IMG/VR virus record: IMGVR_UViG_2645727604_000018
Length of the DNA: 36,905 nt
From: a virus
Lineage: Duplodnaviria > Heunggongvirae > Uroviricota > Caudoviricetes
Strand: one strand, 5' to 3'
Positions 9,001 to 15,000 of the stretch are shown here, piece by piece. Position 1 is the stretch's first letter. Every line of letters begins with the position of its first letter. Made by a program: the position numbers.

Positions 9001-12000
9001 GTGAACGTTATTATTTCTTTTTTATCAGATATGATAAATATCCCATGAGGAAGTAATAATGACAGTAGTAGTGATAACAAATGTTGTTTTTAAATCTCCC
9101 GGAAGGCAAAGAGAAATCTTTGCCTTTTTTAATTCATCCGTCTGTCAGACAGAGTTAAATATATCTTGTTATTTCTATTGCCAGATATGAGAGAAGCGTT
9201 ATAACAGAAGTTATCATTAAAACAAAAAAGGAGATAATAATGGTTTTATTAAATAACAAAAGAAAAAGCAAGAAAGGTTTCTCACTACTCGAACTACTAC
9301 TTGTTTTGGGCATCATTGCTGCATTAGTGGTAGCGGCTTTTATTGTGTATCCCAAGGTTCAGGCTTCACAAAGAGCACAGGCAGAATCCAATAACATTGC
9401 CACCATACAGGCAGGTGTTAAAGCGTTATACACGTCGGCATCAAGCTTTACTGGCCTGACAAATACTGTGGCTGTTCAGGCAAAAATATTCCCTGACAAT
9501 ATGTTAAGTGGGTCAGGAACGGCAGCTAAACCCATCAATGCCTTTAAAGGTAATGTGACGCTGGCTGCGGCAGCGACTGGTCCGTCATCAGCGACTGGCT
9601 CTTCTTTCACTATCACCTACGATAATGTGCCAGCAGCGGAATGTGTGAAGATTGCAACAGCGGCAGCAGGTAATTTCTACATTACCACGGTTGGAACCAA
9701 GGTTGTTAAAGCCGCAGGAGGAACACTCGATGTGGCAGCTACGGCAGCAGCATGTACGAATGCCACAAGTAATACATTAGTTTTCACGTCTATTTAATGA
9801 AGAGGGCGTAAGCCCTTTTCTTTCTTATTGCTAAAACAGGGAGATAATTATGATAAAGAATAAAGGATTTACCTTACTGGAAGTCAGTATTGTTTTAGGT
9901 ATTGGAACGCTTATCGCTTTTATGAAATTTCAGGATATGAGAAACAATCAGGAAGCGGTATTGGCTGATAATGTCGGAACACAGATTAAACAGCTTGGAG
10001 AAGCGGTTAACCGCTATATCAGTATTCGCTATGACAAGATATCCACACTGTCATCATCCAATAATCAAAGCAGCGATCCGGGGCCAAGAACCTGTACGTC
10101 TAATGGCTGTGAAATCACTTACCAGACGTTAATTAATGAAGGTTTGTTGCCTGTAGGCTATACAGGAACTAACGCGCAAAAAGCATCTTACAAAATTGTG
10201 TTAAAGCGTTCAGGAACCGCGCCTAATTACGTGATTAATGGCCTTATAACAACCGCCAGCCCGTGGGAAGAAGGTGGTCGTATTCGTTATGACCTGTTAG
10301 GTAAAGCGGTTCAGGCGGCAGGTGTTGATGGTGGTATGAGCAGAAGCACCAAGATCGCTTCTGGTTATGGTGGTCAGTGGAGTGAGAACTCTAACAGCTA
10401 CAATAACATCACGGGTGGTGGATTGCTGGCTTACCGCGTGGGGTATAACTCTTCAATGTATTCTGTTTACCTGCGCCGTGATGGGACGTTGCCGATGACG
10501 GGTGATCTGAATCTTGGTGGTAAGAGCATCAAAAACATCAAAGATATGACGGCATCAGGAACAACAACAACGGGAGCACTTAAGACAACGGGTAATGCGT
10601 CTGTTGCATCAGATCTGAGTGTGGGTGGAACCTCGACCCTTAATGGTCCTGTAAATATCAACAACAATCTGAGGGTAAAATCCGATACCTATCTGAACAC
10701 GCTTTCAACAACAGGTCTGGCGAAGTTTGGTAGTCGTATCGCGACGAATGGACTTAATCCAAACGATCTGCCTGCTGGCTGGGCTGGCGGTGTTCGCACC
10801 TATGATTTATATGCGTCAGGGACTGTTGGTGTAGGAACCGGGAAAACAGTTAAAGCTTACATGAATAATGCGGGTAATATTTATGCTTCAGGTAATCTTA
10901 CTGCCGGAACGATAAAATCCAACGGAACAATTGAATCAACAGGCAGAATCAAAGCAGGTGAATATCTTCATTTGAATGGTCAGGCAACGTTAAATGCGAA
11001 ATATACGCCTAATGGTCTGGTGGGGCGAGACAGTGCGGGTAGGATGTTATCGTGTGTCAGTGGTAAATGGCAGACAGCAAGTGGTGATGGTCTGAAAGGT
11101 ATTTTTATCACAATAACAGATCAAATCTCTGGTTATAAATGCGTTATACCGAATAGTGACACTGGGACATGTGCCTGCCCGGGATCAACGTATAGTCCTC
11201 AGTTTGGTTATATATCTGGAACTTTAATCGCTGAATACGATGAACGACGTTGTAGTGGTAGTAAGAACGAGCACTGTTATAGTAATATAAGAAGGTTATA
11301 TGCGTGTAGATAATGTTTCTGTCCATTTTATTTAAATGGTGATAATTGCCATTATCATATGTCATGGTAAATTAAAAGGGCCAAGAAGGCCCTTTATAAT
11401 TAAGGCGTTTGTTTCACCAGAATCTATTTAGTTAAAATAGAAATCATCATCACCTGATTCAACGACATTTGTTACAAATGTTCTACATACTATAAAATCA
11501 TCATCATTATTTTCAATAGATTCTGTAAAAAATGTATCCATAGCAGACTGCTTTTCATTAGATATTTCGTATTTTCTTTCACAGTTGCTGGGGGCTAAAC
11601 TGTAATCCTCATCTTGGTTCTCTATGACTCTTGTATGCGTTGTCCAAGTGTTGAGATAATCTTCATCATTAGGTTCTGTGGTAAATGTTTTTACGGTAGA
11701 GTTTGTTTTACTTGAAATTGTTGATGCGTTTATTTCGAAAGATTCACTATAGAGCATAGTATACGGTTTCATATTATATCCTTTTAATTTACAGCTAAAA
11801 ACATGCCTGACGGCGTGAATATGATTTCATTCACTGGATTATCGCTATAATATTGCAGTGAAATGGAAAACATGTATAGCGTGATTCCAACTAAAATCGA
11901 TCTGTATAGATATTTTTCGGCATTTCTAACTATACCTGCAAAATATCTGACGTCATCTTTTCTTGCTATCCAGTCACGATATATAGCCTTCGTTAAGGCA

Positions 12001-15000
12001 TAATTACTGTTATCAAATTTTAATGATTTAAAACTTGATTGAGAAAAACTACTTACCATCATTCCTTTTCTTAGAAAAAGAAATAAATTAATTATATCAA
12101 CAAGCAATATAAAAATAAATAATAGGAAATAAATCTTATTGCAAAATTTGTATTTGCGGATGGTAGAATGGTTTGTAGATAAACCACTGCCCCTGTGAGG
12201 GCAATAGTGATAGTAGTATAATGTGTTATCTTACTTTGAAGATTAGATAAACTATCGTTATTTTCGGAAAGGCGCTGCTTTAAAAAATCTTCTTGTTCCT
12301 TCCTTCTTTTAGGTAGAATTGATTTAATATATTGACTATACGCCATGACATATTCTTCAATTTTTGTGCCCGATATTCTTGGGCAAAGTGTATCATAGTG
12401 TATGCTCGTAAAAAACTGGAAGTTAGATTTATCCAAAATACGGTTTGATTTTTTATTGAAAGTTAATAAATATATTATTTTACTCCCCACAGGAAAACAT
12501 AATAAAGATACTCTTAATGACGTGGAATTAATAACATTTCTTTTTTCAATAGTATCAAAATTCTCATCTAATGATGTGTGGAATAATAATGAAAAGTTTA
12601 ATAATTTTATAATAAAGTAAATGAAATTATACTTCATTTAAAAACCTCACTAACTCACTTGACACATTAATATTCGTTTCATTTTCTAGCCATGCCCATT
12701 GACCATTTGCATTCATCTCTAAGAAGAACCATTCACCATCAAAAACTATAAAATCAAAACATCCAAAAGAAATATTCATGACTGACATATACCTCAGACA
12801 TTTTTCTTTTATAGTATCAGGCATTTTTATTGTTGAATAGAATATTTCGTTATTGTCTTTTCTCCAGTCAATTTTATTTTTAGATATTATTTTTACCGAA
12901 TAATCTTTACCATTTATGAATGTTGATCTCACCTCGAATTCTTTTTTTGTATACGATTGAAAATAAGCTGGACAATATTTTAATGTTTCTGTGTTTTTAT
13001 TCATGTCAACCATATTTGTTTGAACAAATTCCTTTTCTTTCTGATTTTCTATCAATCCACTTGATAACGGTTTGACAATGCTATTGATTGTCAAAGTGTT
13101 TTTGAAACAATCGAAATTATTTGTCAATATAAAATCAGGAATTGTGAATCCAATATCAATTGCAGTTTTTGCTTGCAATACTTTGTTATCTGCTCTTTTT
13201 ATAATTGATGGCTTGGATAAGCATTTTCCAGTAAACGACTCAGCAATCCCTTCAACAAAAGCGAATACTTCTCGAAAGCAATGATTATGATATTTTGAAT
13301 CAATTTTATTGATAATATTCTCAGGAGTTGGTTTTCTATAATAGATGGATCTGCATTCACTCTCGAGCAATTCATTATTATTTTTATTAACAATACTGAA
13401 TCCTTTTTTAGTGTAAGAAAATTTATATTCAGAGAAATTATCAACATCTAACCTGTAAAAATTGTTAATGCTATGTTTTTTTACTATGTAATCAATTGTT
13501 TTATCAAAGCTAGATGTTATAACTAAAATCATTTTTATTCCTATCATTGATAGCCATTTGGTATAAGCTGATAATAATTATATACCTATACCTTTTGCGG
13601 GTTAAGTACAAGCCTCTCTCAAGATGAAGATCGCTATAGATTTCTGAAAGTTATTTGCTGTCAGGAGCTCTTTTTCATAGCAGTGGCTAACTTTTAGTTT
13701 CTCTTCGTTAAACGCGATTAGTTATTTTTATTCATTAAAAACAATAGACTATATCATAACTGTGTTTTTATACAGTTTTAGACTTGTTTTTAGGAAAACA
13801 AAGGATTATAAAATCTGTTGATGCCACTGTATGTGGTGTTTCTTTAGGAATGTAAGTACTACATAAGGGATATTCATAACTTCTTGGGGATTCGTTTCAT
13901 GAGTAAAAACGTAAAACAGACTTCTGAAAATGTGGCTTCTACTGCTGCAAAAACGCTGGCTAATCCTAATGCTTCTGCCATCCAGAAAAGCCTCGCTGGT
14001 TCTGCGCTTTCGCAACGTGGGACATCAAACCAGACAAGTGGGCAAATGGAGCATAAGGCATCATCAGCTCTTGATAATCCACGTTCCAGCAAGTTAACGA
14101 AGCAACTTGCAGCCTCTGTTTTGGCACAATCAAACAAAGGGCGTAAGTGATAAGTAACAGGGAGAGTAAAACCTCCCTGCGTTTTTTATTTACTGCGATT
14201 GTCTGCTTGCTGGAAGGCGATTATTGTTTCTGAGCAAACTCAAACGGCCTGACCATCCCATCCCAGTTAGCATCAAGAAAATCTGCCTACCATTGTAGCA
14301 TCAACCTTCGCTGCTCAAGATGTTTGGCCTTATGTGTATAGGCAGCACGAACACTGTTGCTTTCCTTGTGGTTCATCTGGAGTTCCACCGCATCTTCAGA
14401 CCATAGCCCTGATTCAATCAGAGCACTACATGCCAGTGTGCGGAAACCATGACCGCAAATATCCTGCGTGGTGTCATAGCCCATCTTACGCAGCGCCTTG
14501 TTGATCATGTTTTCAATCAGACCGCTAAACATTGGCAAGACAAAACCCCGACCACTCATCCATCAACGCCACCCGCTTAGGCCATAACGTCCCACGTTGA
14601 TACGCAGCCTCTGCCTTATCTGCCAACTGGTGAGCTAACGCATGTTCAATTACCTCACGCGGATAGTTGGTCGTTTCACCAGCCCAATCACGGAATGTCG
14701 ATCTAAACCCATGCTGTGTTAAATCGGTATATCCCATTCGCTTTAGGACTGCCAGTAAAGCCGTATCCGAGAGTTGTCCCTTCCGAGTGGCAGGGAATAC
14801 AAAACTGATACCCTTAAAGCGTGGTAAAGCTTTTAACAAGGCAACAGCAGCATCAGACAGAGGAACTCGATGCTCCTTCGCTGCTTTCATTCGGCTTGCA
14901 GGTATGGTCCACGTTTTACCTTCAAGATCGATCTCTGACCACTCGGCACCACGAATTTCACCTGAGCGTGCTGCGGTCAGTATGGCAAACTCAAGCGCAC

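Follow-up and report, generated by a model that had tools for sequence, protein, structure and literature searches.

What kind of product is encoded by the minus-strand gene cluster at positions 11428-13547 of the virus record IMGVR_UViG_2645727604_000018, a stretch of 36,905 nucleotides that was analysed as a whole (the window)? A first-pass annotation had suggested a possible graspetide-type cluster, i.e. one for a peptide made by the ribosome and modified after translation (RiPP). This proposal is borne out by the graspetide maturase family matches of the encoded ligase and by a precursor with a TgnA-like leader and cores, and we assign the cluster, with a probability of roughly 0.88, to the thuringinin-type RiPP operons, group 3 of the graspetides or omega-ester-containing peptides (OEPs). 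Membership in the graspetide class follows from the combination of a maturase-clade ligase with an adjacent precursor that has a conserved leader and a Thr/Asp/Glu core. The identification of the Escherichia coli cluster is correct but is already contained in published graspetide catalogues, and it is not a new kind of system. What is new here are the membrane-protein model, its topology, a natural ligase fusion and the frequent defence-gene neighbours.

Gene content of the cluster

The open reading frames (ORFs) and genes of the cluster, with protein lengths in amino acids (aa), are the following.

12627-13547, minus strand: ligase ORF, 306 aa counted from the first ATG
12627-13532, minus strand: graspetide ATP-grasp macrocyclase gene, TgnB-like, 301 aa (306 aa from the upstream ATG at 13547)
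11784-12637, minus strand: gene for a three-helix membrane protein, 284 aa when intact in other E. coli, here split into 181 and 107 aa
12092-12637, minus strand: ORF of 181 aa, 5' part of the membrane gene
11784-12107, minus strand: ORF of 107 aa, 3' part of the membrane gene
12111-12115: frameshift site, five A here and six in other E. coli
11428-11772, minus strand: precursor gene, TgnA-like, 114 aa, acidic, four cores

The GC content is 0.27-0.31 throughout 11428-13547, in line with the earlier estimate of about 30 percent, and mostly 40-55% in the remaining window. Over this region E. coli O127:H6 E2348/69 is 99.8% identical to the window, and its RefSeq annotation lists three genes, namely a "MvdC/MvdD family ATP grasp protein" and hypothetical proteins of 284 and 114 aa. 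Four tightly packed minus-strand genes had been counted at first. The packing and the strand hold, with an 11-nt overlap between the ligase stop and the next start and an 11-nt gap between the membrane gene and the precursor gene, whereas the number of genes falls to three, two of the ORFs being one frameshifted gene. What had been described as two small membrane proteins are, in the alignment to E2348/69, the halves of a single 284-aa gene. The precursor ORF belongs to the same operon as the ligase gene and is located 866 nt downstream of it.

The ATP-grasp ligase

The start of the ligase at ATG 13532 is favoured because AGGA lies six bases upstream of it and because it agrees with the N-termini of homologues. 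The protein includes FLEMNANGQWAWLE, and with it the NGQW / E-x-N motifs originally pointed out; the full motif E-x-N-x-N-G-Q-W is invariant in 24 homologues of 45-62% identity, as are the ATP-grasp positions K154, E200, R202, D222-W-R224, D260, E272 and N274. Profile searches of the 306-aa protein ranked the graspetide maturase models far above the RimK family. Full-length NCBIfam matches were obtained to GRASP_SAV_5884 (2.9e-50), MvdD (5.9e-41), MvdC (7.6e-41) and grasp-with-spasm (1.6e-23), all of them under the curated equivalog cut-offs; among these models, TIGR04187, TIGR04184 and TIGR04185 cover the full ligase at 1e-41 to 1e-50. The Pfam model of the MvdD pre-ATP-grasp domain (PF21068) was matched at 35.2 bits (gathering threshold 27). 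A sequence search of the PDB returned six matches, MdnB, CdnC, AMdnB, MdnC, PsnB and 9bou, the last of which is named as an MvdD-like pre-ATP-grasp domain protein. Taken at the level of sequence, these matches show that the ligase belongs to the graspetide macrocyclase clade, not to the RimK/glutathione synthetase housekeeping type.

A housekeeping-type ligase of the latter sort, or an enzyme that modifies the adjacent type IV pilins, would leave the acidic ORF an incidental neighbour. Such a role could be argued from weak RimK-family matches (rimK_fam, TIGR00768, 1.3e-9; PF08443, 0.12), from the location of the genes next to pilS and pilV, and from the Klebsiella ATP-grasp protein CfmP, which drives post-translational modification of the fimbrial pilin FimA (PMC13419641). 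However, TIGR00768 reached 37.8 bits against a cut-off of 143.4, PF08443 12.4 bits against a threshold of 21, and rimK_fam trails the graspetide maturase models by 40 orders of magnitude. Klebsiella CfmP is a TupA-like ATP-grasp protein and belongs to another family, and no pil genes were recognised in the flanks of other loci, where the acidic repeat ORF is always found. We consider this alternative highly improbable; as far as sequence evidence goes, a housekeeping or pilin-modifying ligase was rejected on the NCBIfam scores, the PDB matches and the constant acidic ORF. Of the two outcomes that would have spoken against a graspetide cluster at the outset, neither was seen: the ligase does not group with RimK or glutathione synthetase, and the acidic ORF is conserved and co-located.

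The precursor, its leader and its cores

The acidic four-repeat protein of 114 aa was recovered as first described. It has 23 D+E and 8 K+R, a pI of 4.07 and a mass of 13.27 kDa, begins with MKPYTMLYSES, and contains four exact T-x2-T-x3-E-x2-D-x-D repeats (TxxTxxxExxDxD) that start at residues 26, 44, 80 and 98.

11743-11769, minus strand: leader recognition motif KPYTMLYSE, residues 2-10, pattern kept in relatives, similar start in TgnA
11659-11697, minus strand: core 1, TVKTFTTEPNDED, exact motif
11605-11643, minus strand: core 2, TTHTRVIENQDED, exact motif
11551-11589, minus strand: vestigial core, residues 62-74, SNCERKYEISNEK, gap-free alignment to the Kluyvera third core
11497-11535, minus strand: core 3, TFFTESIENNDDD, exact motif
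11443-11481, minus strand: core 4, TFVTNVVESGDDD, exact motif

The leader pattern MKPY(I/V/T/S)xxYS(E/Q/K/D) is conserved in 16 of 16 precursors and comes close to the leader signature Phhx(1,2)h. Between residues 62-74 and the third of five Kluyvera units the alignment has no gaps; since the key residues are gone, this segment is interpreted as a vestigial fifth core. The core motif occurs far more often than chance would allow: of 200,000 shuffles of the precursor that preserved its composition, none contained three or more motifs. In addition, a six-frame translation (568,296 aa) was made of the window and 19 loci, comprising E2348/69, 17 related loci and one Bacillus thuringiensis plasmid locus; all 76 motif hits in this set fall within precursor ORFs downstream of the membrane gene, with 0 elsewhere.

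Conservation of the three genes

We scanned the ligase alignment against one genome per species and obtained 17 loci with 40-62% ligase identity, the rest being classical graspetide ligases at 36% or less. The hosts of these loci are Kluyvera, Brenneria, Enterobacter, Pseudoalteromonas, Alteromonadaceae, Shewanella, Marinomonas, Aliivibrio, Photobacterium, Colwellia and Paraburkholderia. The co-occurrence of the genes in other genomes, which had been put forward as a check, is complete: each of the 15 related loci whose downstream DNA is intact shows the order ligase, membrane protein and acidic precursor. In these loci the membrane protein has 282-398 aa and an overlapping start, and the precursor has the same core in 2-7 copies. 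From one locus to the next the flanking genes are unrelated, and therefore the mobile unit consists of exactly three genes. Judged by this distribution, the operon is a mobile three-gene cassette that ranges from Enterobacterales to Paraburkholderia.

Within E. coli the region was found in 92 of 5426 complete genomes, as a single chromosomal copy, and zero nucleotide matches to it were found in enterobacterial plasmids. Together with the relatives from Salmonella, Klebsiella, Enterobacter and Providencia among the entries of the catalogue of Makarova et al. 2022, this frequency contradicts the initial impression that such clusters are unusual in an enterobacterial genomic island. Table S1 of that catalogue places ATP-grasp proteins of 306 aa from several other E. 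coli strains in Branch_Thuringinin; these entries are given with precursor cluster 13 and Lee group gr_03 (assigned by motif), and with at least 50% identity to sequences of Iyer 2009 and Lee 2020. The entries of its precursor file include one from E. coli that matches residues 6-85 of the 114-aa protein and one of 37 aa that is identical to its C-terminus, and both TgnA and the E. coli precursor fall in precursor cluster 13. We found no paper in the literature that characterises the E. coli product.

Comparison with characterised graspetides

Thuringinin is the closest of the known systems. The best plasmid match of the single ligase is its homologue on B. thuringiensis pHS18-2 (39.9% identity, E 2e-61), the other plasmid matches listed being at most 31% identical and the full-length ones among them at most 28%. 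The pHS18-2 locus, whose precursor is much like TgnA, has orthologues of all three genes in the same order of ligase, membrane protein and precursor with overlapping starts and stops, so that the co-encoded membrane protein, a trait of the thuringinin family, is present in both. The 361-aa membrane protein of pHS18-2 is homologous to that of E. coli (hhalign probability 100%, E 1.7e-43; 25% identity and E 6e-8 by BLASTP), and the 130-aa precursor of the plasmid locus (MYKPYIAKYVEE...) carries three exact cores and a fourth variant repeat. TgnA of serovar huazhongensis has the same leader and three cores of the TxxTxxxExxDxD pattern. It begins with MYRPYIAKYVEE, compared with MKPYTMLYSES here, giving K/R-P-Y-x-x-x-Y-x-E as the common start of the leader.

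Several differences from thuringinin were also noted. The precursor in the window has four intact cores and one vestigial core, in contrast to three cores in TgnA, and its first core starts at residue 26 and not at about residue 47, leaving a much shorter spacer after the leader. The host is a Gram-negative enterobacterium with the genes in a chromosomal island at tRNA-Asn, whereas thuringinin comes from B. thuringiensis. Thuringinin itself is trivalent with two esters per repeat (PMC12291112).

The other graspetide groups are more distant. Plesiocin (group 2; PsnA/PsnB of Plesiocystis pacifica) is likewise multivalent and is made by one ATP-grasp enzyme with two esters per repeat, but it has another core motif and leader, and PsnB is a distant match (7drm, E 5.9e-5). 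The microviridins (group 1; MdnA-E) share the ligase fold, the chemistry and leader-dependent activation, and MdnB and MdnC are the best solved homologues. In contrast to the cluster studied here, they require two ligases (for ester and amide bonds), a Lys-containing TxKxPSD core and a PFFARFL leader, and genes for an acetyltransferase and a protease/ABC transporter are also part of their cluster; none of these features occurs here. The window has one ligase, no such core or leader, and no Lys at any conserved core position.

The membrane protein and its frameshift

Pfam, NCBIfam and PADLOC gave nothing for the membrane protein or for the precursor. For the membrane protein, a profile search of 1.84 billion representatives yielded 189 relatives, nearly all of them full-length and 250-390 aa long. 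The AF2 model of the protein has a pLDDT of 93.1, and a structural search with this model retrieved generic three-helix bundles alone, with no informative match. The hydrophobic stretches and the K+R counts (20 in the N-region, 10 in the loop 191-244 and 0 in each of the two other loops) indicate a three-span topology, in which the N-terminal domain and the loop 191-244 are predicted to be cytoplasmic. Invariant or near-invariant positions are D24, F27, R42, S44, G51, Y56, K136, F203, Y220, N239 and E241.

A natural fusion of 548 aa, in which the ligase is joined to the N-terminus of the membrane protein, was found on two independent metagenome contigs.

L083 579-2631 and L084 245-2297, metagenome contigs: ligase-membrane protein fusion

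Behind the fusion comes a precursor of 134 aa that has five TxxTxxxExxDxD cores and a leader missing the proline (MKKHILNHYKT). Such a fusion agrees with the predicted cytoplasmic N-terminus and argues for a physical coupling between ligase and membrane protein.

The protein varies in length between lineages. It has 284 aa in E. coli and 340-398 aa in the Bacillus, Vibrionaceae and Alteromonadales versions, which have an extra C-terminal domain of some 90 aa. This domain, with a range of about 60-110 aa, was seen in the marine gammaproteobacterial, Paraburkholderia and Bacillus versions (L005-L017, e.g. L008 6918-7979) and is lacking from the enterobacterial proteins of 282-285 aa; under the predicted topology it would be outside the cytoplasm.

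In the alignment to E2348/69 the window is one A short in the A-run at 12111-12115, and this 1-nt deletion causes the 284-aa gene to fall into the 181-aa and 107-aa ORFs. A 241-nt query over the site spans 242 nt in all of the best 60 of the 92 E. coli genomes, none of which is identical to it; these 60 genomes have 98.3-99.6% identity over the 241-nt stretch, keep the 284-aa frame and lack the deletion. The deletion is either a strain-specific mutation or a homopolymer sequencing or assembly error; if real, the membrane-protein step would be lost in this strain.

The frameshift, together with the degraded state of the island, could mean that the cluster is a decaying remnant without function in this strain. 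In E2348/69 the annotation has pseudogenes next to it, namely integrase fragments and a MobQ relaxase gene interrupted by an internal stop, and one precursor repeat has already decayed. On the other hand, both the ligase ORF and the precursor ORF are intact, the deletion is confined to the window in the comparison with the 60 genomes and sits in a homopolymer, a classic site of sequencing errors, and conservation of the three proteins extends across orders, their catalytic and core positions being invariant. We therefore regard loss of function as an unlikely explanation of the locus.

Proposed pathway

For a thuringinin-type operon the following sequence of steps can be proposed. The ligase would bind the KPYxxxYSE leader and, with ATP, convert core Asp/Glu side-chain carboxylates into acyl phosphates, which two Thr hydroxyls per core would then attack to form two omega-ester rings per core. 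About eight esters in total would amount to -144 Da on the 13.27 kDa precursor. This would give an acidic peptide or protein that is tetravalent and resists proteases and that, like other graspetides, most likely inhibits them; the characterised ones are all protease inhibitors (PMC8939145). One ATP-grasp enzyme makes all linkages of thuringinin (PMC8939145), for which reason the membrane protein is probably dispensable for cross-linking here. It might dock the ligase or the precursor at the membrane and handle export, release or self-protection. Most likely it acts after cross-linking, in export, anchoring or immunity, and this assignment is the weakest link of the model.

A number of observations weigh against the thuringinin-type assignment and the pathway built on it. 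The ligase falls below the NCBIfam curated cut-off of each named equivalog, with 171 bits where 350 are needed, and therefore represents a diverged branch. The membrane gene is broken in the window, and neither within the cassette nor beside it is there a gene for a protease or a known transporter. Promoter-like sites in the region are no more numerous than expected from shuffled sequence, and no terminator was predicted for the operon. In addition, the esters, their connectivity, the removal of the leader and secretion are all carried over from the characterised family.

Graspetides are stable multicyclic peptides, and the cluster is present in pathogenic and clinical E. coli, among them the enteropathogenic (EPEC) strain E2348/69. 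A product of the thuringinin type could therefore matter for host or microbial protease interactions in the gut. The membrane protein, listed with "unknown function" in surveys, gains with its model, topology, fusion and frameshift allele a handle on export, anchoring or protection.

Flanking genes of related loci and a possible role in defence

The flanks of 14 related loci, with 91 ORFs in all, contain integrases, transposases and many defence genes, and no conserved protease or transporter was found among these ORFs. The defence genes include type IV and type I restriction, BREX BrxL/PglZ, Hachiman HamA/HamB, QatC, SIR2 with HerA, PbeA and Cas8f. In Kluyvera georgiana (L002 8241-11310), for instance, SIR2-like and HerA-like genes come directly after the cassette (PADLOC 1.4e-154 and 7.1e-166), and at other loci BREX, Hachiman, Qat, restriction and type I-F Cas genes lie within 6 kb of it.

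These neighbours allow the cluster to be viewed as a defence or conflict module, whose cross-linked acidic protein and membrane partner would act within the producer or at its envelope. The proteobacterial trio would then be a self-contained, horizontally mobile conflict cassette of defence islands. The partner, naturally fused to the ligase in some metagenomic versions, would hold it at the inner membrane, and the ester-stapled multi-core protein would serve as an anti-phage or anti-invader effector, e.g. a multivalent protease trap, and not as a secreted natural product. The protein and its partner might interfere with a protease of a phage or plasmid or with another function of the invader, or they might set off membrane damage. 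Consistent with this, the three genes are the only conserved unit in the 14 gamma- and betaproteobacterial loci, their flanks are rich in mobility and defence genes, the cassette adjoins a DUF262 and HEPN gene pair and integrases in the window, no exporter or leader peptidase is present, and an anti-phage RiPP precedent exists among the lanthipeptides (10.1101/2024.06.26.600839). However, accessory cargo of any kind, bacteriocins included, is commonly associated with mobile islands, and the richness of the flanks is a raw tally, uncorrected for the background density of defence genes in such islands. PADLOC v2 gave no real match for any of the three proteins (PycTM at E 4.5 is meaningless), and the neighbours of the B. 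thuringiensis copy are a cry toxin gene and an IS element and not defence genes. We give a defence role, in the general form as well as in that of an intracellular effector, a low probability, and retain the thuringinin-type RiPP operon as the preferred interpretation.

Among 50,697 phage records just two distant ATP-grasp matches of 28-32% identity were found; the cassette is not typically phage-borne.

Surroundings of the cluster in the window

A promoter-like site lies upstream of the operon.

13577-13605, minus strand: promoter-like site, TTAACC, 17 nt, TATAAT, consensus match only

The cassette is flanked by pilS/pilV remnants of a degraded mobilisable element and by integrase genes, and the island complex ends at a tRNA-Asn about 5.8 kb away. 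The type IV pilin gene and pilV occur beside the MobQ relaxase gene, a pseudogene with an internal stop according to the E2348/69 annotation (9240-11313, plus strand, and 6422-7579, minus strand, for the three together), and no pil assembly genes were noticed near these three in the window. The pilin gene, pilV and the relaxase gene are remnants of a mobilisable element. Further along, at 3848-6313 on the minus strand, a gene pair of about 29% GC encodes a 506-aa AAA-family ATPase and a 310-aa hypothetical protein in the E2348/69 annotation; the pair may belong to this degraded element as a further module of accessory or defence-like type.

Upstream of the ligase gene, a truncated 3' piece of a P4-type integrase (14287-14559, minus strand) overlaps with the end of an intact gene (14525-15802) for a 425-aa integrase. 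Such an integrase fragment is also located upstream of the ligase in Kluyvera (L002 5564-5794) and Brenneria (L003 5597-5893), which suggests that the cassette moves with a fixed island end or was inserted into an integrase gene. The DUF262 and HEPN gene pair (16004-17835, plus strand; E2348/69 annotation) stands between the integrases at 14525-15802 and 17902-19236, just before the tRNA-Asn (19350-19425), and looks like a separate small defence-type island. About 1 kb past the tRNA-Asn, a tRNA-Ser (cga) is found at 20417-20506 on the plus strand. Beyond the island the window appears to depart from E2348/69, because that genome has yeeO after its tRNA-Asn.

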